A stretch of 64,000 nt of DNA, taken from NCBI GenBank assembly GCA_964419785.1, contig CAYQRM010000112.1, positions 5,927-69,926 of the forward strand, read 5' to 3'. Below the pieces are notes generated by a model. The model did not search any database, was not told the origin of the DNA, and saw only the letters and a list, made by a program, of their open reading frames with translations. Position numbers and translations under genes: made by a program. The DNA comes from an uncultured Solibacteraceae bacterium (GTDB lineage: Bacteria > Acidobacteriota > Vicinamibacteria > Vicinamibacterales > SCN-69-37). Position 1 is the first letter of the stretch; every line of letters begins with the position of its first letter. This document shows, one piece after another, positions 48,207 through 61,300 of the stretch.

Positions 48207-49166
48207 TCAGAACACATCAAGACTCGGATACACGACTGCCTTCGGCGCGGGCACGATGGCCGCAAGATCGCCGCAGGGACGCAGCATCATGATCTCTTCC
48301 GCAGGCGTCTCTTTAACGATGCGCCACTGCGGCGGATGACACCCGCGCGGCAGGCGGGCGCGAACGACGAGCGGACCCTCGGCGGGAGTCCGCGCCGCGA
48401 GCACTTGCAGCATCGCCCCAACGCGCGCGCCGGACGGATCGCGATCGCCGCAATCCTCGAGGACGTTGCCGCGAGGCCCGCGCGTCATGATCACGTACGC
48501 GACGGGCTGATTGGCTTCCTCGGTCACGAAGAACTCGACCGACCTCAGACCGATCGGGCCGAGCCCGGCGAGCAGTCGGCGTCGCGCGAGGACGAACGCC
48601 AGAAAGTCCGCGCTGCGATCGAGCGCGAACGATGCGCCTGCGCGCGCGCGCGCCGAAAGCTCTGCGATGCCGTCCAGATCGCGCGCGTCGCCCGAGCGAA
48701 CGAGCACCGCCGGCGCGCCGCCTCGTCCCCGCAGCACCTCGATCGTCTGCTCCGACGTCGGAACCACCTTGAATCCGAGCTGCTCGTAGTACGTCGCGCC
48801 AATTTCCGAAAACAGCAGCGCCTGCTCGCATCCGCGCCGGGCAGCGTCGGCGACGAGCGCGTCAACGAGAACGTGTGCGTGCCCGCGGCCGCGGAGCACC
48901 GGCGGAGTGAACACAGCGCCAATGCCGGCGACCGCGATTCGGCGCCCCTCGGTCCATGCCTCGAGGTCATACCGCTTGGCGCTGGCGAGCACCCGGCCGC
49001 CCTCGACCAGCGCATGCCTGGACAGCCTCGCCCGGCCCCACGTCGTCTCACGTTGCGCGCGGTACCACTTGGCGTAGGCGTCCTCGGTAAGTCCTTCTCC
49101 CCAAATAGGATAAGTGTCCTGGAGTATCTCGTGGAGCCTCTCGCCGTCCGCCGTCACCAGCTCCAT
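48207..49166 (-). CDS. GNAT-family N-acetyltransferase with C-terminal extension
   Basis: 319 aa. Acetyl-CoA region VFTPPVLRGRGHAHVLVDAL...LLFSEIGATYYEQLGFK. Confidence 0.7.
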   Translation of the reverse strand: MELVTADGERLHEILQDTYPIWGEGLTEDAYAKWYRAQRETTWGRARLSRHALVEGGRVLASAKRYDLEAWTEGRRIAVAGIGAVFTPPVLRGRGHAHVLVDALVADAARRGCEQALLFSEIGATYYEQLGFKVVPTSEQTIEVLRGRGGAPAVLVRSGDARDLDGIAELSARARAGASFALDRSADFLAFVLARRRLLAGLGPIGLRSVEFFVTEEANQPVAYVIMTRGPRGNVLEDCGDRDPSGARVGAMLQVLAARTPAEGPLVVRARLPRGCHPPQWRIVKETPAEEIMMLRPCGDLAAIVPAPKAVVYPSLDVF

Positions 49167-49234: not shown

Positions 49235-51082
49235 ATGACGCCCCAACGCCTGCACCTGATGAGGCCGGTTGTGGCGACCGCCACGGCCGCCACGCTCTTC
49301 AGCCTGCTCACGACGAACCCGATTGCCGCCGAAGGCACGAGCGCCGTGCCTGACAAGGCGGATGCGCGGACGGTCGCGCACGTGCTCGATCGAATCGGTT
49401 TCGGCGCGAAGCCCGGCGACGTCGAGCGCGTCCAGAAAGTGGGCCTCACCGCATACATCGAAGAGCAGCTGCATCCCGAGAAGATTGCGGACGAATCGCT
49501 CACCATGCAGCTCGAACAGTACTCGACGATCACCATGAGCTCGAAGGAGCTCGCCGACAAGTACTACATGCCGGCCATGGAACTGCGTCGCGACGCGCAG
49601 CTCAAGCAGCAGAAGGCTGCGGCCAAAGCCGCCAAGTCCGACGACACGACGACGAACAGCAGCGGCGCGTCGGGCGATGCGAAGCCGACGCCGCCGCCGG
49701 TGCCGCCTGAAGTGCGGCAGGTCCAGCAGGCGCAACAGAACGTCATGAACGAGCTGATGCAGTCGCGCCTGCTCCGCGACGTCGACTCCGACAAGCAGCT
49801 CCAGGAAGTGCTCACCGACTTCTGGTTCAACCACTTCAATGTCTTCGTCGGCAAGGGCCAGGTGCGGGAGTACCTGACGGCATACGAGCGCGACGTGATT
49901 CGTCCGCACGTGCTCGGCAACTTCCGCGACCTGCTCGGCGCGACCGCGCACAGCCCGGCGATGCTCTTCTATCTCGACAACTGGCAGAGCTCGACGCCAA
50001 ACGCGCCGGCGATGCTCAGTCCAGAGATGGAGCGCCGGATTCTGAACAATCCCCGGATGGCGGCGGCGCAGAGGCAGCAGATGGTGTCGCGGCTGCAGGC
50101 GGCGCAGAAGAACGCACCGAAGGGCCTCAACGAGAACTACGGCCGCGAGCTGATGGAGCTCCACACGCTCGGCGTCGACGGCGGCTACACGCAAGATGAC
50201 GTCATCAACGTCGCGCGCGCGTTCACCGGCTGGACGATCGATCGCCCGCAACAGGGCGGCGGATTCGTCTTCAAGCCGCAGATGCACGACACGGCCGAGA
50301 AGACGATCCTCGGCGTGAAGTTCCCTGCCGGCGGCGGCGAGAACGAGGGTGAGCGTGTGCTCGACATCCTCGCGAAACATCCGTCGACCGCACATCACAT
50401 CGCGTTCGAGCTGGCGCAGCGGTTCGTGTCGGACACGCCACCCGCGTCGCTCGTCGACCGCGCCGCGAAGCGTTTCCTCGACACCAAGGGCGATCTGCGC
50501 GAGGTCACGCGCACGATCATCGAGTCCCCCGAGTTCTTTGCCGACGACGCCTATCGCGCCAAGGTCAAGACGCCGCTCGAGTTCGTGGTCTCCGCCGTTC
50601 GCGCGACCGGCGCGGTCGTCGTCAATCCGCAGCCGCTCGTCGCCGAATTGCGAACGCTCGGCATGCCGCTCTATGGCTGCGTGCCGCCGACCGGCTACAG
50701 CATGACGGCCGACGCGTGGGTGAACACGGGCTCGCTGCTCAACCGGATGAACTTCGCGCTGCAGCTCGTGAACGGCCAAGTCCAGCCGGGTCCTGGCGGC
50801 CCGCGCGCCGGCGGACCGCCGCCCGGACGCAACGGTCAGCCGCCGCCTGGGCGATTCGGCGGCCCCGGGCCTGGCCCTCGCGCGTTCGGTCCGCGCGGCC
50901 CGATCCAGATCGATCTCACGACGCTCGCCCCCGACACGACCGAGCAGTCGCGCACGAACTTGATCGACTCGATGCTCGCCGGACAGGTGTCGGACGCGAC
51001 GGCCAGAACGCTCGCGCGCGCCGAGACGCCGCAGCAGCTGGTCGCGCTGACGCTCGGGTCGCCGGAATTTCAGCGGCGGTAA
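49235..51082 (+). CDS. DUF1800 domain protein
   Basis: 615 aa with a signal-like N-terminus. LTDFWFNHFNVF and NENYGRELMELHTLG blocks as I recall for DUF1800. Paired with DUF1501. Confidence 0.7.
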   Translation: MTPQRLHLMRPVVATATAATLFSLLTTNPIAAEGTSAVPDKADARTVAHVLDRIGFGAKPGDVERVQKVGLTAYIEEQLHPEKIADESLTMQLEQYSTITMSSKELADKYYMPAMELRRDAQLKQQKAAAKAAKSDDTTTNSSGASGDAKPTPPPVPPEVRQVQQAQQNVMNELMQSRLLRDVDSDKQLQEVLTDFWFNHFNVFVGKGQVREYLTAYERDVIRPHVLGNFRDLLGATAHSPAMLFYLDNWQSSTPNAPAMLSPEMERRILNNPRMAAAQRQQMVSRLQAAQKNAPKGLNENYGRELMELHTLGVDGGYTQDDVINVARAFTGWTIDRPQQGGGFVFKPQMHDTAEKTILGVKFPAGGGENEGERVLDILAKHPSTAHHIAFELAQRFVSDTPPASLVDRAAKRFLDTKGDLREVTRTIIESPEFFADDAYRAKVKTPLEFVVSAVRATGAVVVNPQPLVAELRTLGMPLYGCVPPTGYSMTADAWVNTGSLLNRMNFALQLVNGQVQPGPGGPRAGGPPPGRNGQPPPGRFGGPGPGPRAFGPRGPIQIDLTTLAPDTTEQSRTNLIDSMLAGQVSDATARTLARAETPQQLVALTLGSPEFQRR

Positions 51083-51112: not shown

Positions 51113-52348
51113 ATGATGACTCGACGCATTTTCATGAAAAACGGCACGCTGGCGCTCGTGAGCCTCGGCTTCGCGCCTGCGTTCATCGCGCGCACGGTGA
51201 AGGCCGCCGAAGCGCGCAAGAAAGTGCTCGTCGCGATCTTTCAGCGCGGCGCCGTCGATGGCCTCAACATGATCGTGCCCTACGGCGACAACTCGTACTA
51301 CCAGTCCCGTCCATCGATTGCGATTCCGCGGCCGAACAACGGCGACGGTGCGGTCGACCTCGACGGGTTCTTCGGTCTGCACCCGCGCATGCGGCCGCTC
51401 GCCGACATTTTCCATCGCAACGAGATGGCGATCGTGCACGCTTGCGGATCGCCCGACGAAACGCGGTCGCACTTCGACGCGCAGGACTACATGGAGAGCG
51501 GCACGCCGGGCGTGAAATCCACGCGCGACGGCTGGCTCAACCGCTACCTGCACGCGAAGGAGCACGAAACCGCGAGCCCGTTCCGCGCGGTCGCACTTGC
51601 CCCGCAGCTGCCTCGTACGCTCCAGGGCTCGGCGCCGGCCCTCGCGATCAATCAGCTGAGTCAGTTCGGCGTGCGCGCGGGTCGTTCCAGCGACAGCATG
51701 GAGTCGACGTTCGAAGCCCAGTACGAAGCGGCCGCCGATACCCTGCTGGCGCCGACCGGCAAGGAAGCGTTCGACGCGGTCAAGATGCTCAAGAACTCGG
51801 ACCCGGGCAACTATGTGCCGGCGAACGGCGCCGATTATCCGCGCTCAGGATTCGGGGACGCGATGCGGCAGATCGCGCAGCTCGTGAAGTCCGATCTCGG
51901 CCTCGAGGTCGCGTTCGCCGAGCTCACCGGCTGGGACACGCACGTGCAGCAGGGCAACTCGACGGGTCAGCTCGCCAACCGGCTCGACGATTTCGCGAAG
52001 GGCCTCGCGGCATTCAACGCCGACATGGGCGACCGCATGGCCGACGTCGTCGTCGTGACGATGTCGGAGTTCGGACGCGCGGTGAGCGAGAACGGCAACC
52101 GCGGCACGGATCACGGCCACGGCAACGCGATGATGATCTTCGGCGGACCGGTCAAGGGCGGCAAGGTCTACGGCCGCTGGCCCGGGCTCGCCGTCAACCA
52201 GCGCTGGGAAGGCCGCGACCTCGCGATCACGACGGACTTCCGCAACGTGTTCGCCGATCTCGTCGCCGTCCACCTCGGCGCGCGCGATGTCTCGTCGATC
52301 TTCCCGGGCTACGAATACAAGGGACAGATCGGGTTCCTTCGCACATAG
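51113..52348 (+). CDS. DUF1501 domain protein (sulfatase-like fold, Tat signal)
   Basis: 411 aa. Twin-arginine leader MMTRRIFMKNGTLALVSLGFAPAF. TMSEFGRAVSENGNRGTDHGHGN block. Confidence 0.75.
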   Translation: MMTRRIFMKNGTLALVSLGFAPAFIARTVKAAEARKKVLVAIFQRGAVDGLNMIVPYGDNSYYQSRPSIAIPRPNNGDGAVDLDGFFGLHPRMRPLADIFHRNEMAIVHACGSPDETRSHFDAQDYMESGTPGVKSTRDGWLNRYLHAKEHETASPFRAVALAPQLPRTLQGSAPALAINQLSQFGVRAGRSSDSMESTFEAQYEAAADTLLAPTGKEAFDAVKMLKNSDPGNYVPANGADYPRSGFGDAMRQIAQLVKSDLGLEVAFAELTGWDTHVQQGNSTGQLANRLDDFAKGLAAFNADMGDRMADVVVVTMSEFGRAVSENGNRGTDHGHGNAMMIFGGPVKGGKVYGRWPGLAVNQRWEGRDLAITTDFRNVFADLVAVHLGARDVSSIFPGYEYKGQIGFLRT

Positions 52349-52368
52349 GCGGCCTCGGAACGTGAAAA

Positions 52369-52434
52369 TTGAGGCAGTGAGGCAACGAGTGAGTGAAGAC
52401 CATTCACACATTGCCTCATTGCCCCATTGCCCCG
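52369..52434. repeat. REP-like hairpin, CATTGCCY octamer family
   Basis: ttgaggcagtgaggcaa - 25-nt loop - ttgcctcattgccccattgcccc. About 13-bp stem. Intergenic. Confidence 0.7.
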
Positions 52435-52507
52435 TTTCCTCGTCGCCCCGCCGGCGCATTGTCTAGACTCGCCGAAGCTCCCGAAGACGCTATGCTTTGG
52501 GGGCCTC

Positions 52508-53632
52508 ATGGATTTGTTCTCGATCCCAACCCCACGCGTCTTCGTCGAGCGCCCTCGTCTCCAACACAACATCGCGGCCATGCAGGCGCGGGCGTCGAAT
52601 GCGGGCGTGCGGTTGCGGCCGCATGCGAAGACGCACAAGAGCCCCGCGATCGCGCGCATGCAGCTCGACGCGGGCGCGGTCGGATTGTGTTGCGCCAAGC
52701 TGGGCGAGGCGGAAGTATTTGCCGCCTCGGGCATCACCGACATTCGTCTTCCCTACCCCATCAATCCGTCGAACGCGTCGCGCGTCATCGCGTTGCTCGA
52801 TCGCGGCGTTCGCCTGTCAATCATTGTTGACGACGGCGACGTCGCGGCGGCGTGGTCGTCGGCGATGGTGCGGGCCGGGCGACGGCTCGACGTGCTGGTG
52901 AAAGTGGATGTCGGGCTGCACCGTTGCGGCGTCGACCCGAATTCACCGGCCGTCGTCGAGATGATTCGCGGCGTGTCCGATCTCGCCGGCGTCAGGCTGC
53001 TCGGCCTGCTGAGCCACGCAGGACACGGCTATCACGCGACGTCGGAAGAGGAGTTGCTGGCGATCGCGGACAACGAGATCACCATCCTCACGTCGCTGGC
53101 TGAGCGCGCGCGAGATGCCGGCGTCGAAATCGGCGAGATTTCCGTCGGCGCAACGCCGACGGCGCGCTTCATCACGCGCCAGCGCGGCGCCACGGAGATG
53201 CGTCCGGGCAACTACGTCTTTTTCGATCGCACGCAGGTGGGCTTGGGCTCGGCGACGCTCGACGATTGCGCCTTGTGGGTCGTTTCGACGGTCGTGAGCC
53301 GGCCGGCGCCGACGCGCATCAACTTCGACGCCGGCAGCAAGACGCTGACCAACGACGGCGTGCGCGGCTTCGGCACGCAGGTCGGGCACGGGCTCGTGTG
53401 TCGCAACCTGGACCATCCGACGCCGGACCCGTCGATTGTGATCGAGCGGCTCTCGGAGGAGCATGGCACCGCGCGCGTGCCCGCGGACTGCCCGCTCAAG
53501 ATCGGCGACCGCGTTCGTATCCTTCCCAATCACTCGTGCGTCGTCAGCAACCTGATGGATGAGCTGCTCGTCGTCGACGGCACGTCGATTGTCGACACGC
53601 TGCCGGTCGCCGCGCGCGGACGGATCTGGTAG
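52508..53632 (+). CDS. D-threonine aldolase / D-serine dehydratase-like PLP enzyme (alanine-racemase-N fold, DSD1/D-TA family)
   Basis: Start at MDLFSIPTPRVFVERPRLQHN. RPHAKTHK PLP-lysine motif. C-terminal RLSEEHG...RILPNHSC. Confidence 0.75.
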   Translation: MDLFSIPTPRVFVERPRLQHNIAAMQARASNAGVRLRPHAKTHKSPAIARMQLDAGAVGLCCAKLGEAEVFAASGITDIRLPYPINPSNASRVIALLDRGVRLSIIVDDGDVAAAWSSAMVRAGRRLDVLVKVDVGLHRCGVDPNSPAVVEMIRGVSDLAGVRLLGLLSHAGHGYHATSEEELLAIADNEITILTSLAERARDAGVEIGEISVGATPTARFITRQRGATEMRPGNYVFFDRTQVGLGSATLDDCALWVVSTVVSRPAPTRINFDAGSKTLTNDGVRGFGTQVGHGLVCRNLDHPTPDPSIVIERLSEEHGTARVPADCPLKIGDRVRILPNHSCVVSNLMDELLVVDGTSIVDTLPVAARGRIW

Positions 53633-53644
53633 AGTTCAACCGCT

Positions 53645-53935
53645 GTGGCGCCAAAAACACTGCCCGGTGAAGCGTTGGGCCTGATCGAAACGCGCGGCTT
53701 CGTCGGCATGATCGAAGCGACGGACGCGATGGTGAAGACCGCCAACGTCGTCTTCGTCGGCTGGCAGAAAGTCGACGCCGGCCTCGTGACCGCGATCGTT
53801 CGCGGTGACGTGGCTTCAGTGAAGGCCGCGACCGACGCCGGCGCCGCCGCCGCACGCAAGGTCGGCGAGCTCGTCGGCGTGCATGTCATTCCGAGACCCG
53901 TCGAGGGGCTCGGGGACATCTTCCCGATCGATTAG
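53645..53935 (+). CDS. bacterial microcompartment shell protein, BMC-H (PduA/EutM/CcmK family)
   Basis: 96 aa. [77 protein letters not shown] is near-colinear with remembered PduA. GTG start 12 nt after the preceding stop. Confidence 0.9.
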
Positions 53936-53995
53936 ACACAAGAACTCCGCGTCAAAATAAGAAGTCCCGGCGAACTGAGAGGACTTCGAGCGCTC

Positions 53996-56641
53996 CTATC
54001 TCCCGTATATCGCCGCGTTGAAGATGACGCGAAACGTCCCGAACGGCTGCCCGCGCCACTGCGGGCGGAAGCCGAGCAGGACGACGTGGCCGTCGCCGAG
54101 CGGGATGTCGAGCGCGGCGGCTTTGCCGTGCAGGTAGTTCTCGCCGAGCATGTAGCCTGAGGCGAGCGGCGATCCGGTGTCCGCGTATTTCGCAAGCACC
54201 GCGCCGTTGAATCCTGGCTGCGGATCGAAAACCGGGCCACCGTCATAGAACACCGCGGCGGTCTCTGGCATGCCCGACATGACGCGCTGCGATCGATCGA
54301 CCTGCACGTTCAGCAGCGAGATCCCCGTGAAGAACTGCGTGCGATTCAGGCCCGCGACCGCGTTTGCGACCGGCAGGTGGAGCTGATCGATCACCGACGT
54401 GCTGCTGCGGTTGAAGCAGACGAGCGTGCCGCCCGCGCGCACGAAGCCGTCGATCGCTCTGACGCGATCTTCGGTGCCGGGCGCAGGAGCTGGCGCCCCG
54501 CCCCGGCCGCCCGCGCCACCGCCACCACCGCGCCCGCCGCCGCGGCCGCCGCCGCCGAACGGACCGCCGCCCTCGTCGGTCACGATGAGCACGTCGAGCT
54601 TGTCGCGCAGGTGGCCCGCTTGAATGTCCTCGGCGCTCACGCGCGCGTACTCGAAGCCGTACTGATCGAGCACCCAGCGCGTCCAGCCCTCGTCCATGCT
54701 CGTCGGCGCGTTGAAGACGCCGAGGCGCGGCTTCTTCACAGAGGTGCCGGTCGCGTTCACGCGCTCAGCCTGGAGCGCGAACATCTTCACGAGCTCGTCC
54801 TGATCGGCCGGCGCGAGACCGTTGATCAGGTACTTGCCGCTCGCGTACTGCACGTCGAGGCCGGCCTTCCACGCGCGATTGAGCGCGCGGAATGTGTTGT
54901 TCTGCGCCGGATCGAGCGCGAGCGCCGTGCCAGATCCGCTGATCTTGCCGGCCGGTGGAACGACCGCGGCCGCGTTGGGACTCGCGTCGAAGCCGATGCC
55001 AGGCACGCTGTCGAATGTCGCCGCGTCGTTCGACGCGGTCAAGTTGTATGGTGTCGGCTTCGCCTTCGGATCGGGTAGCGGCCCGAGCAGCTTCATCTTC
55101 GCTCGCACGTCGGGCGCGAGCGGCTGCTGAATCGCGGTGACGGTGACGCCCATCGACAGGGGCAGCGTCCATCCGGCCGCGTCGTAGGGCTGGTTGAGCG
55201 GCGCGGTCGGCGTCGCGCGCACGTCCGGGTACGCCTGCGGATCGAGCACCTCGCGTGCGAGCGCGGCGAATTCCTGATCGGTCGGGATGACCCACGCCCC
55301 CGCCGGCGCGTCGAGCGCGTCAGCCGTCAGCTGATACACGCGCACGCCCGCGAATGCGAGACGACGCAACAGCTCGACCGCGGCGACCGGGTCGCGCTGC
55401 GATTGCGGCACAAGATACGCGTACGGCGCTGTCGATTTGCCCTGCGCGATCTGGGCGGCGCCAGCTTGATATCGCCCGTAGAGCAGCGACTCCTTGTACT
55501 TCGCCGCGTAGCCAAGCACCGACAGCGCCGCCGTCTCGTCGTATTCGACGGCATTTCGCAAATGCCACTCGCCGCCCGGGTACGGATCGGTGTAGAGCGC
55601 TTTCGGCTGCTTCTGCGCGTCGCTCGCGGTCACGTTGCTTGGAATCGCCGACGCGCCGGCTGTCTCCGTCCAGAATGACGGGATGTTCTTGAAGATCGGG
55701 TTGTAGTCGATATATCCCGGATACCACGCGTCGTACGTGTCGAGCATGTGCACCGCGCCGGGCTGATTATGCTGCGCGAGCCCCTGCGCGATCGCCATGC
55801 CGATCATGTTCACCTCACCCGACGGAATCGGCGGCGCGTGCAGCGCGATCGGTTCGGCGAACGGCGGCAGCCAGATCCGGTACGGATTCGGCGGCGCCTG
55901 GTGCAGCACGTAGACGAGGTTCGGTTCCCAGTCGCGCCACGTGTGCTCCATGACGCGCGACTCGAACATATTCAGCATGTAGGCGTCGCGGTTGTTGTCG
56001 TGGCCGACGAACTCCTGATAGAGGTACGGCATCTGCGGCTGCTGCGCGCGCGGATTTGCCGGATCGACGTGCTGCATAAACCAGTCGGTCACCATCTGCA
56101 TGCCGTCGGGATTGATCGTCGGCCACAGCATGAAGATGACGTTGTCGAAGATCTCCTTCATCTCCGGCTGATCGGCTTTCGACATCAAGTCGTACAAGAG
56201 CAGTGGAGTCTGCTGCGGGCCCGCGATCTCGGTTGCGTGCAGCCCGCCGTCGATGTGCACGAACGCCTTGCCCTCGCGCGCGAGCGTGTGCGCTTCGGCG
56301 TCCGTCAGGCCCTCAGGATGCGCGAGCCGACGCGCGATCTCCCTGTAATGATCGACCTTCGCAAGGTTCTCCTTCGACGAGATCAGCGCGAACCAGTACG
56401 TCCGGCCCTGCGTCGTCTTTCCCGCCTGAACCATCCTCATGCGATCGGGCGCAGCCGCGCGGACTTTCTGGAAGTAGCTCACGGCCTGGTCGTACGTCGC
56501 GAGCTTGAAGTCGGCGCCGGGCTCGAAGCCGAAGACGGACGCAGGCGTCGGAATCGATCCCGACTGGCCGCGCAAGGCGACCGGCACGACGAGGAGCGAA
56601 AGTATGAGGACTCTGGCCAGCACACGCATGGCCGAAATCAT
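53996..56641 (-). CDS. secreted M14-family zinc-carboxypeptidase-like protein with C-terminal GATase1-like domain and Gly/Arg-rich insert
   Basis: 881 aa with a signal peptide. Zn motif HIDGGLHATE (HxxE), HDNNRD block, GGGPFGGGGRGGGRGGGGGAGGRGG insert. Confidence 0.7.
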   Translation of the reverse strand: MISAMRVLARVLILSLLVVPVALRGQSGSIPTPASVFGFEPGADFKLATYDQAVSYFQKVRAAAPDRMRMVQAGKTTQGRTYWFALISSKENLAKVDHYREIARRLAHPEGLTDAEAHTLAREGKAFVHIDGGLHATEIAGPQQTPLLLYDLMSKADQPEMKEIFDNVIFMLWPTINPDGMQMVTDWFMQHVDPANPRAQQPQMPYLYQEFVGHDNNRDAYMLNMFESRVMEHTWRDWEPNLVYVLHQAPPNPYRIWLPPFAEPIALHAPPIPSGEVNMIGMAIAQGLAQHNQPGAVHMLDTYDAWYPGYIDYNPIFKNIPSFWTETAGASAIPSNVTASDAQKQPKALYTDPYPGGEWHLRNAVEYDETAALSVLGYAAKYKESLLYGRYQAGAAQIAQGKSTAPYAYLVPQSQRDPVAAVELLRRLAFAGVRVYQLTADALDAPAGAWVIPTDQEFAALAREVLDPQAYPDVRATPTAPLNQPYDAAGWTLPLSMGVTVTAIQQPLAPDVRAKMKLLGPLPDPKAKPTPYNLTASNDAATFDSVPGIGFDASPNAAAVVPPAGKISGSGTALALDPAQNNTFRALNRAWKAGLDVQYASGKYLINGLAPADQDELVKMFALQAERVNATGTSVKKPRLGVFNAPTSMDEGWTRWVLDQYGFEYARVSAEDIQAGHLRDKLDVLIVTDEGGGPFGGGGRGGGRGGGGGAGGRGGAPAPAPGTEDRVRAIDGFVRAGGTLVCFNRSSTSVIDQLHLPVANAVAGLNRTQFFTGISLLNVQVDRSQRVMSGMPETAAVFYDGGPVFDPQPGFNGAVLAKYADTGSPLASGYMLGENYLHGKAAALDIPLGDGHVVLLGFRPQWRGQPFGTFRVIFNAAIYGR

Positions 56642-56718: not shown

Positions 56719-57183
56719 TCATGCTCGCTTCTTGGCTTTCCGTCGCGCGCGCGCCCGGCCGTTCACGCGCTTGAGCGGCAAGCCGTCGCCTGTGATGAGG
56801 GGCTGCGTCGGATCGACGAGCAAATCGAAAATGTGACCTTGTCGCGTGCGCAGGAACAAACCGCGACCGTCCGTCAGCAAGCGCATCTCGCCGGCATCGT
56901 CGAGCGTCTCGGACAATCGACGACGGAAATAGTCGCGGAGGGTGTCCATCATCTGCCTGAGGGCCGCGGGCGCGAAACCCTGTCGCCGAAGCTCCGCGAG
57001 CGCGACAAGCTCAATCAGATCGACCGGCGAGTACCGTCGTTCGGTGAAACCGCCGGCGCTCGTCCGACGTGGCGCAATCGCGGCCAGAAAGATTCTGGCG
57101 GCGTCCCAGCCCTGGAGCTGACGGGCAGACAAACCGGTGAGCGCGGCGACTTCGCGGGCGGAGTAACTGGTTTTAAGACGCAT
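56719..57183 (-). CDS. MerR-family transcriptional regulator
   Basis: YSAREVAALTGLSARQLQGWD HTH, then RRYSPVDLIELVALAELRRQG. ATG 57183 is preferred over TTG 57201. Confidence 0.7.
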   Translation of the reverse strand: MRLKTSYSAREVAALTGLSARQLQGWDAARIFLAAIAPRRTSAGGFTERRYSPVDLIELVALAELRRQGFAPAALRQMMDTLRDYFRRRLSETLDDAGEMRLLTDGRGLFLRTRQGHIFDLLVDPTQPLITGDGLPLKRVNGRARARRKAKKRA

Positions 57184-57194
57184 CGAAGGCTTCA

Positions 57195-57270
57195 GGCCCA
57201 AGGAAGATTAGCGCAAGGCGAGCTCAAGCGCCGCTGGGGCCTGTGGCCTCTCGCCTGGGGCCTGATCCGG
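57195..57270. repeat. second copy of the GGCCCAAGG...AGCTCAA...CTGGGGCCTG element
   Basis: ggcccaagg...agctcaag...ctggggcctgtggcct...cctggggcctg. Same block order as 17193-17262. Confidence 0.6.
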
Positions 57271-57271
57271 C

Positions 57272-57571
57272 CTATTTCAAGAATTTCTGCGCAACCGTAT
57301 CCGCCTGCTTCGCGCCCGCGAGATCCTTTTCGGTGACGCCACCGGCATCGTGCGTGCTCCAGCGCACGGTCACGCGCTTGTAGTTGATGCCGAGATCGGG
57401 ATGATGATCCGCAGCTTCGGCTTCGAACGCGAGGCGCGTCGTGAACGCGATCGCGTCGGGAAACGATCCGAACGTGAACTCGCGCACGATCGCGTCGCCG
57501 TCGCGGCGCCAGCCCGGGCGACTCGACAGTCCCGCGGTGATGTCCTGGTCCGAGAGTTTTCCATCTTTCAT
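57272..57571 (-). CDS. phhB: 4a-hydroxytetrahydrobiopterin dehydratase (PCD/DCoH)
   Basis: 99 aa. FPDAIAFTTRLAFEAEAADHHPDLGINYKRVTVRWSTH is the PCD signature. Confidence 0.85.
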   Translation of the reverse strand: MKDGKLSDQDITAGLSSRPGWRRDGDAIVREFTFGSFPDAIAFTTRLAFEAEAADHHPDLGINYKRVTVRWSTHDAGGVTEKDLAGAKQADTVAQKFLK

Positions 57572-60187: not shown

Positions 60188-61300
60188 CTATGCCGTTGCC
60201 CCAAATCGATCCGGCGACGTCGACGCGAGGATCGGATCGTCGACATTGTCGACGAGCGAATCCGCCACGAGCTTGGCGGTGATCGGTGCCAGCAGCACGC
60301 CGTTTCGGAAATGGCCGCTCGCCATCATCACGCGCGGCGCTCGGGCGAGCCGGCCGATTGCCGGCAGTCGATCCGGCAGCGCCGGCCGCAGTCCGACCTT
60401 CACGGCTTCGATCGACGCGCGCGCAGCCTCGGGCAGGAGCGCGCTCACCGCGGCGGAGAGATCGCGAACGGCCTCGACCGTCGAATGCTCGTCGAAACCA
60501 ACTTCTTCGACCGTCGCGCCGACGAGCAGCGTTCCGTCCGACCACGGGACGGTGTAGCACGACGAGCCCCAGACGATCGGCTGAGGCAGAAGCGCCTGCG
60601 GCGGCCACTGCAAGTGCAGCAACTGTCCGCGCACCGGCCGGACGGGCGGCGGTATCGCGCCTTTGATGCGGACACGCGACGTCCAACTGCCCGCGGCCAC
60701 GACGACCACGTCCGCGTTGTACTCGCGCGCTCCCGCTCGAACAACGACGCCATCCGCGCCCGGATCGATCTCGAGGACCTCGACGACGTTCTCGAAGCTC
60801 GCGCCGGCGAAGCGCGCGCTCGTGACGAGCGCGGTCACAAGGTCTCCAACGCCGACGAACGCATGAATCGGAGTAAACAGCGCGCCCACTGACGAGCGCG
60901 TCACCGCGGGCTCGAATGCCGCCATCGCGGGTCGATCGAGCCAGCGCGCCTCGATGCCCGCGGCGTCGAGATGACGCTTGGCGACCTCGAGCTCAGCCGC
61001 TTCTGGTTCGTTCAATGCGACCTGCAGCGTGCCCGACCGCGCGTACTCGACGCGCCTGCCGCTCTCGCGCGCTGCGCGCTCGACGAACGCATCGTACAGC
61101 GCGAGGCTCCGCCGCCCGAGCTCGAGCATCGACGCTTCGCCGTGCGACTCGATGAACGGCGCCAGAATGCCGGCCGACGCCTGCGACGCACCGCGCCCGG
61201 GCGCGCGCATGTCCAGAACGGTGACTGACGCGCCGCGGTGCGCAAGCTCTTCGGCAATCGCGGCGCCGATGACGCCGGCACCGATGACTAACACGGTCAC
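60188..61300 (-). CDS. thiO: glycine oxidase / FAD-dependent DAO-family oxidoreductase
   Basis: 370 aa. VLVIGAGVIGAAIAEELAHRGASVTVLD...ASQASAGILAP. C-terminal GHFRNGVLLAP. Confidence 0.7.
   Translation of the reverse strand: MTVLVIGAGVIGAAIAEELAHRGASVTVLDMRAPGRGASQASAGILAPFIESHGEASMLELGRRSLALYDAFVERAARESGRRVEYARSGTLQVALNEPEAAELEVAKRHLDAAGIEARWLDRPAMAAFEPAVTRSSVGALFTPIHAFVGVGDLVTALVTSARFAGASFENVVEVLEIDPGADGVVVRAGAREYNADVVVVAAGSWTSRVRIKGAIPPPVRPVRGQLLHLQWPPQALLPQPIVWGSSCYTVPWSDGTLLVGATVEEVGFDEHSTVEAVRDLSAAVSALLPEAARASIEAVKVGLRPALPDRLPAIGRLARAPRVMMASGHFRNGVLLAPITAKLVADSLVDNVDDPILASTSPDRFGATA

Follow-up and report, generated by a model that had tools for sequence, protein, structure and literature searches.

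Bacterial microcompartments (BMCs) of the ACI type belong to Acidobacteria, mainly of subdivisions 4 and 6 (Sutter et al. 2021, Nat Commun 12:3809, PMC8217296). As described in that catalogue, the ACI main locus combines a PF00596 aldolase with a C-terminal encapsulation peptide (EP), a BMC-H shell gene, three adjacent BMC-P genes, and a protein of ~80 residues that has an N-terminal EP and conserved C-terminal cysteines; main loci are also listed with a hydroxyacid dehydrogenase (PF00389/PF02826). The ACI aldehyde dehydrogenase (AldDh) is consistently located on a satellite locus, with its EP near the C-terminus and followed by a domain of ~50 residues, and a third BMC-H is listed as 'by itself' (H_marine; PMC8217296, Supplementary Data 2). 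Here we analyze a BMC-H gene, denoted H3, in a stretch of 64,000 nucleotides (nt), hereafter the window, which is part of contig CAYQRM010000112.1 (C112) of a 4.78-Mb assembly in 309 contigs. The nearest relatives by name are metagenome-assembled genomes (MAGs) of Vicinamibacterales, i.e., Acidobacteriota subdivision 6. H3 directly follows a gene for a pyridoxal 5'-phosphate (PLP) enzyme, and our data make it probable that H3 is the third, satellite BMC-H paralogue of an ACI-type compartment rather than one half of an obligate enzyme-shell unit.

The H3 gene (positions 53645..53935 of the window, + strand) starts with GTG and encodes 96 residues that match PF00936 over profile positions 1-75 of 75 (1.2e-27). 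The gene preceding it (52508..53632, + strand; 374 residues from ATG) encodes a fold-type III PLP enzyme of the DSD1/D-threonine aldolase (D-TA) family, in which an alanine-racemase N-terminal domain (PF01168, 1.9e-27) is combined with a D-serine dehydratase-like domain (PF14031, 4e-22). The TAG stop of the PLP gene (53630-53632) is separated from the GTG of H3 by exactly 12 nt, which agrees with the reading frames and the spacing given in the original prediction. That prediction had described H3 as an orphan shell gene and had offered two explanations, namely a satellite of a distant BMC locus, or a minimal unit made up of a PLP enzyme that releases an aldehyde and a single shell protein. It was right in finding no other shell gene in the window; however, a genome-wide search with PF00936 and PF03319 returned three BMC-H genes, each on a contig of its own, and a total of three BMC-P genes, which all lie on contig C5 beside the BMC-H gene H1, the matches outside the window being confined to C5 and C138. 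Within its genome H3 is therefore no orphan, and the first of the two explanations is the one that the search bears out.

The gene order on C5 is that of an ACI main locus. A class II aldolase (C5:10835-11755; PF00596, 1.1e-49 over residues 9-185) is followed by H1 (C5:11780-12067), three BMC-P genes (PF03319; between 12204 and 13050) and an 80-residue, cysteine-rich protein (C5:13066-13308). The aldolase has a C-terminal tail of ~100 residues that ends in an amphipathic helix, GEIRLTYGQLTALVDEAVRQLAEAG, and that we judge by inspection to be encapsulation-peptide-like, while the 80-residue protein has a helical N-terminus, MTDDELRALVRQAVQRHL, and the C-terminus CNHCGYCKSHGH, with CNHCGYC as its end, and no match in Pfam. 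On C138, the BMC-H gene H2 (C138:11282-11569) is directly followed by a gene for an AldDh of 561 residues (C138:11617-13302; PF00171) with a C-terminal extension, an arrangement that is conserved in relatives. The genome agrees with the ACI type in the aldolase with its tail, the BMC-H gene with the BMC-P triplet, the ~80-residue protein, the AldDh satellite and the taxon, and, as in the catalogue, neither the main locus nor the AldDh satellite includes the third BMC-H gene. The difference is that the catalogued third BMC-H stands alone, whereas here, and in most Vicinamibacterales, it closes a run of genes on one strand, directly behind the PLP gene. Beyond the 2021 catalogue, we found no literature on the function of ACI compartments.

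Relatives were compared using our own gene calls, made by picking open reading frames and by tblastn. BMC-H genes were found in 71 of 71 species-representative genomes of the family, mostly exactly three per genome, and the BMC-P triplet in 117 of the 121 near-complete genomes that represent the order Vicinamibacterales, where the ACI compartment is nearly universal. This bears directly on the second explanation of the original prediction, a stand-alone compartment in which one BMC-H, independently of any canonical BMC, encloses or scaffolds a PLP enzyme that produces an aldehyde. The window itself, with no BMC gene other than H3, would be compatible with such an assembly, as would the acetaldehyde-releasing D-threonine aldolases in the enzyme's family (PMC4401734), but the same genome holds a complete ACI shell gene set, as do 117 of the 121 order genomes, and no BMC-P gene lies beside the PLP-H3 pair in ~50 loci. 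Furthermore, the enzyme lacks a targeting peptide, its metal site has His/Cys ligands with no conserved aldolase base, and either gene can persist where the other is missing, as detailed below. The stand-alone organelle was ruled out as a candidate once the PF00936/PF03319 searches had given the main locus and the AldDh satellite, and we consider it essentially excluded.

A deviating case within the same family is genome G009 (99% complete), which has two BMC-H matches and no PF03319 match, together with five DSD1-family paralogues, none of which is an orthologue of the window enzyme. In this genome the compartment may have been lost or remodelled.

The H3 protein aligns end to end with the BMC-H proteins PduA (PDB code 3NGK) and EutM (3MPW), with E-values of about 1e-30 to 1e-31, and shares with them the PF00936 fold, the edge lysine and the IPRP motif. 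The edge lysine, at the position of PduA K26, lies in DAMVKTANV (DAMVKSANV in PduA). The pore loop reads K-V-D-A-G-L in H3, compared with K-I-G-S-G-L in PduA and Q-I-G-G-G-L in EutM, so that an aspartate takes the position of PduA Gly39 and an alanine that of Ser40. The colinearity, the edge lysine and the difference in the pore loop that the original prediction had given were all borne out by the alignment with 3NGK. H3 does not have the small neutral pore of the K-I-G-S-G type; KVDAGL is a variant pore and no ground for exclusion from the BMC-H family. KVDAG is invariant across ~45 H3 orthologues, which are 75-96% identical to each other. A second difference from PduA and EutM is located in the corner motif, which reads PRPV instead of PRPH; PRP[V/A/G] occurs in nearly all of the ~45 orthologues, and in two of them the PRP part is changed to PNP or PHP.

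H1, H2 and H3 constitute three separate BMC-H orthogroups. H1, beside the aldolase and the BMC-P genes, has the pore sequence EKIGAGY, and H2, beside AldDh and with conserved flanks of its own, has EYIGAGY; in relatives' loci the identity of H3 to these two is 71-76%. Because of this identity of >70%, and because the edge lysine and most tiling motifs are retained, H3 most likely co-assembles with H1 and H2 in the ACI shell as a minor facet subunit. As judged from the alignment with PduA, six aspartates would ring the pore of an H3 hexamer, and such a ring would probably alter what passes through the pore or binds at it. A use of the BMC-H fold off shell duty, e.g., as sheets, filaments or a metal-binding hexamer, would be in line with the invariant KVDAG and the loss of the PRPH histidine to V/A/G in nearly all Vicinamibacterales orthologues, with the location of H3 away from the BMC-P and H1 genes in all cases, and with G009, which combines BMC-H genes with a lack of PF03319 matches. 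We regard it as very unlikely, considering that H3 has kept the edge lysine and the other tiling motifs and is >70% identical to H1, that it is found only in lineages having the ACI compartment, and that a related Asp-pore BMC-H in another acidobacterial class keeps PRPH and sits inside an AldDh satellite.

The latter protein was found with a degenerate DNA pattern for K-V-D-A-G-(L/M)-V-T, a pattern without control matches. Of the 401 Acidobacteriota genomes searched, 30 match: 24 Vicinamibacterales, five of one genus in a distant family, f40 (GC ~50%), and one in f28. In the f40 genomes (G146, G194, G250, G330 and G370; loci L169-L173, e.g., L173:5899-6219) the BMC-H has the pore sequence EKVDAGL and an intact PRPH, and is encoded 1.2 kb downstream of the H2-AldDh satellite, from which it is separated by a vWA-like gene and a zinc-ribbon membrane gene; no PLP enzyme is encoded nearby. 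The f40 arrangement links the Asp-pore subunit with the compartment instead of the enzyme, and suggests that an Asp-pore hexamer is a recurrent, perhaps general, component of ACI shells. Its placement behind a PLP gene is specific to Vicinamibacterales.

Regarding the PLP enzyme, the best matches in the PDB are D-threo-3-hydroxyaspartate dehydratase from Delftia (3WQC, 5e-53) and D-threonine aldolase from A. xylosoxidans (AxDTA; 4V15, 2e-52), the identity being moderate in both cases. Together with chicken D-serine dehydratase (3ANU), these proteins share with the window enzyme the fold-type III scaffold, the PLP lysine and a metal site adjacent to PLP. In the AxDTA structure, Mn is bound by His347 and Asp349, and His193 is the catalytic base, whereas chicken D-serine dehydratase and 3LLX have His and Cys ligands and no His193 (PMC4401734). 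In the alignments, the window enzyme has NHSC where 3WQC has NHAC and the aldolase has SHVD, and K41, H170, H342 and C344, i.e., the PLP lysine, the histidine of SHAG and the His/Cys pair, are invariant in 49 of 49 Vicinamibacterales orthologues. The second metal ligand is thus a cysteine throughout, in place of the aspartate of AxDTA, and the position equivalent to His193 is a histidine in only 24 of the 49. With PF01168 plus PF14031, the PLP lysine and a His/Cys metal site, the enzyme has the features of a DSD1-type dehydratase, and is probably a metal-dependent D-beta-hydroxy-amino-acid dehydratase; a dehydratase that yields a 2-oxo acid and ammonia is more likely than an aldehyde-releasing aldolase. 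Compared with the catalytic residues of AxDTA, the aldolase assignment finds no support, and release of an aldehyde by the PLP enzyme is doubtful because of the His/Cys metal site and the lack of a conserved aldolase base.

Nor does the enzyme resemble a cargo protein. Of its 374 residues, those from 3-4 to 371 are covered by the alignment to solved homologues, and the termini of its orthologues coincide with those of homologues from BMC-free genomes. Since start and end match in this way, the enzyme carries no EP, and no EP or terminal extension was seen at either terminus in comparisons with PDB homologues and about 60 orthologues and homologues; the encapsulation helix that the original prediction had proposed looking for is thus absent. 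The PLP enzyme looks cytosolic. Furthermore, PF01168, PF14031 and the term 'racemase' have zero occurrences in the catalogue's supplementary tables of BMC-associated families (PMC8217296). DSD1 homologues (36-40% identity) also occur in many Asgard archaeal MAGs (Promethearchaeota, Thorarchaeota, Hermodarchaeota and Odinarchaeota), and none of the loci concerned (L123, L127, L134, L136, L139, L143-L148, L151-L154, L161 and L163) has a BMC-H gene near the homologue.

Without an EP, a dehydratase-type enzyme could still convert a D-beta-hydroxy-amino acid at the surface of the ACI shell, with the acidic pore of H3 gating the entry of a charged product, a substrate or a metal into the compartment; we consider this rather unlikely.

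The adjacency of the PLP gene and H3 is common among relatives. Orthologues of the PLP enzyme (60-90% identity) are present in 58 of the 71 family genomes, and H3 lies immediately downstream in 22 of 30 fetched family loci. Outside the family but within the order (53-63% identity), 14 of 19 loci have the two genes side by side on one strand, although the M14 peptidase gene downstream of H3 in the window is never present and the upstream DUF1501 gene is often replaced. Considering the sampled order genomes having both genes, the PLP gene and H3 are adjacent and co-directional in 15 of 18. Across 43 distinct loci, the PLP stop and the H3 start are a median of 21 nt apart, with a distance of ≤30 nt in 24 of them, and because of these short gaps the two genes are probably co-transcribed in most of the order. 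In the window, where H3 closes a run of genes on one strand, the spacing likewise makes co-transcription with the PLP gene probable. Beyond the order (≤50% identity) no homologue of the PLP enzyme has a BMC-H neighbor; homologues at 46-49% identity occur in BMC-free genomes, and four genomes in this range are without any BMC genes. A locally rearranged locus in one relative (L096/L019, genome G012) reads M14> PLP> <H3 <DUF1501 <DUF1800, where arrowheads give the direction of transcription, and here H3 is on the opposite strand while still adjoining the PLP gene.

The original prediction had named two observations that would speak against a special pairing of enzyme and shell protein, namely a complete BMC locus elsewhere in the genome and an adjacency that is not conserved in relatives. 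The former is what we find, whereas the latter does not hold, since the adjacency is conserved across most of Vicinamibacterales. However, conservation is not confined to this gene pair. When the neighbors of H3 were clustered over 25 loci, the common order was [<GNAT] [DUF1800> DUF1501>] PLP> H3> <MerR <PCD <ThiO, where PCD is pterin-4a-carbinolamine dehydratase, and ThiO was found near H3 in 19 of the 25 loci, compared with 16 for the PLP gene. ThiO cannot share a transcript with H3 because it is convergent on it. This neighborhood is a slowly rearranging chromosomal backbone with strong synteny inertia. The <MerR <PCD <ThiO block converges on H3 across the whole order despite no possible common transcript.

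Both genes have also been lost independently. H3 follows DUF1800> DUF1501> with no PLP gene in between in G001 and G039, and lacks the PLP enzyme also in G041, G042, G247, G287, G191 and G412. Where DUF1501 is directly followed by H3 in PLP-less relatives, at a distance of ~55 nt, an operon for exported proteins would end with H3. In some PLP-less relatives the GNAT gene is directly beside H3 (H3> GNAT> in L078, <GNAT H3> in L084). Conversely, five Vicinamibacterales loci (L111, L113, L115, L116 and L120) have the order PLP> <MerR <ThiO without H3, and G226 and G436 have the enzyme together with only two BMC-H genes and no KVDAG motif. G385 shows this pattern too, but its PLP gene is on a 4.7-kb contig of a 280-contig assembly, and H3 may be unassembled. 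For 37 evenly drawn order genomes, both genes were found in 18, only H3 in 6, only the PLP gene in 3-4, and neither in 9, a positive association that is uncorrected for phylogeny and in which seven of the nine 'neither' genomes come from one family. The adjacency is weak evidence for function, since MerR, PCD, ThiO, GNAT and DUF1800/DUF1501 are also conserved around H3. Because the neighbors are equally conserved and each gene has been lost separately, adjacency indicates only a probable operon context; the PLP-H3 link is common, not obligatory, and represents a lineage-specific operon context.

These results also frame the possibility of a functional two-gene module, where a D-hydroxy-amino acid would be converted by the enzyme at the shell or close to it, with H3 as the dedicated gate or docking tile for the substrate or product. 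Co-directional adjacency in 15 of 18 genomes at a median gap of 21 nt, persistence of the pair where the DUF1501 and M14 flanks have been replaced, and the positive presence/absence association are all in its favor, and satellite modules of enzyme plus shell protein have published precedent (PMC8217296), the EutABC+EutL satellite modules being the analogue invoked. On the other hand, both genes have been lost separately several times from the same slot, the enzyme has neither an EP nor an extension, and homologues with 46-49% identity exist in BMC-free genomes. The convergent MerR, PCD and ThiO genes are as conserved beside H3 as the PLP gene is, the association has the phylogenetic limits given above, the f40 KVDAG BMC-H sits with AldDh and not with a PLP enzyme, and PF01168 and PF14031 are in no catalogued BMC locus. 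On balance a two-gene module is unlikely. If true, an accessory module of this kind would provide the first clue to what ACI compartments metabolise.

Several observations nevertheless weigh against H3 as a plain ACI satellite paralogue. When both genes are present, PLP>H3 is the tightest link in the neighborhood, and insertions flank the pair on either side and rarely split it. The short gaps suggest co-transcription, hence co-regulation, and there may be a functional tie. Public RNA runs yielded only short contigs from relatives' BMC-H genes, with a depth of zero across the PLP-H3 junction. The incorporation of H3 into the ACI shell is itself deduced from sequence. Finally, and at variance with the catalogue, the main locus of the present genome is without a hydroxyacid dehydrogenase, and none of the genome's eight PF02826 matches is on C5, C138 or C112.

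A satellite position for H3 has a parallel in CcmK3 and CcmK4 of the beta-carboxysome, two minor BMC-H paralogues whose genes likewise lie outside the main locus, and which are thought to tune shell permeability via separate regulation (summarised in PMC8217296). A functional tie between the PLP gene and H3, e.g., co-regulation that tunes shell permeability, is hypothetical. H3 differs from CcmK3/CcmK4 in the type of compartment, in its acidic pore and in its altered PRPH motif.

As a satellite paralogue, H3 mainly re-identifies a gene that is known from the ACI catalogue. Absent from the searchable text of the catalogue are the invariant Asp-ringed pore predicted for a third shell paralogue, the probable co-transcription, in most Vicinamibacterales, of H3 with a PLP enzyme of the D-amino-acid type, and the similar Asp-pore hexamer encoded beside AldDh in another acidobacterial class. 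Vicinamibacterales are abundant soil Acidobacteriota, and these details could guide work on ACI function and on shell selectivity as set by the pore.

The remaining genes around the pair in the window correspond to the backbone described above. Upstream, a GNAT-like acetyltransferase of 319 residues (48207..49166, - strand; PF13527, 1.7e-09), a recurrent member of the neighborhood, is followed on the + strand by a DUF1800 protein (49235..51082; PF08811, 6.5e-145), which recurs upstream in relatives, and by a DUF1501 protein (51113..52348; PF07394, 1.3e-36) with a Tat-like RRIFMK signal. A scan of 52200-54200 for promoters and terminators found nothing, such a scan not being informative for this phylum. 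Downstream and convergent with H3, an M14 zinc carboxypeptidase-like protein of 881 residues (53996..56641, - strand; PF00246, 2.9e-21) is encoded in a slot that has an M14 gene in loci of family f1 only and lacks it in the other families of the order; the M14 gene is a family-specific insertion. Beyond it on the - strand lie the backbone genes converging on H3, i.e., a MerR-family regulator (56719..57201; PF13411, 3.5e-08), PCD (57272..57571; PF01329, 2.1e-29) and a homologue of the glycine oxidase ThiO (60188..61300; found by tblastn, 54% identity to the L071 orthologue), so that the MerR/PCD/ThiO backbone is intact in the window but broken up by the M14 peptidase and an FtsX-type permease. 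The ThiO-like neighbor had been a candidate for a D-amino-acid oxidase partner of the PLP enzyme, and was ruled out as such by its TIGR02352 score (288.7 bits for the L071 orthologue, cut-off 250.8), which identifies it as the glycine oxidase of thiamin biosynthesis. The ACI main locus on C5 is flanked by PdxJ, TPR and Nth genes. PdxJ, the pyridoxine 5'-phosphate synthase (C5:9073-9933; PF03740, 1.7e-80), lies ~0.9 kb upstream of the main locus, with the TPR gene and a small membrane/zinc-ribbon gene in between.

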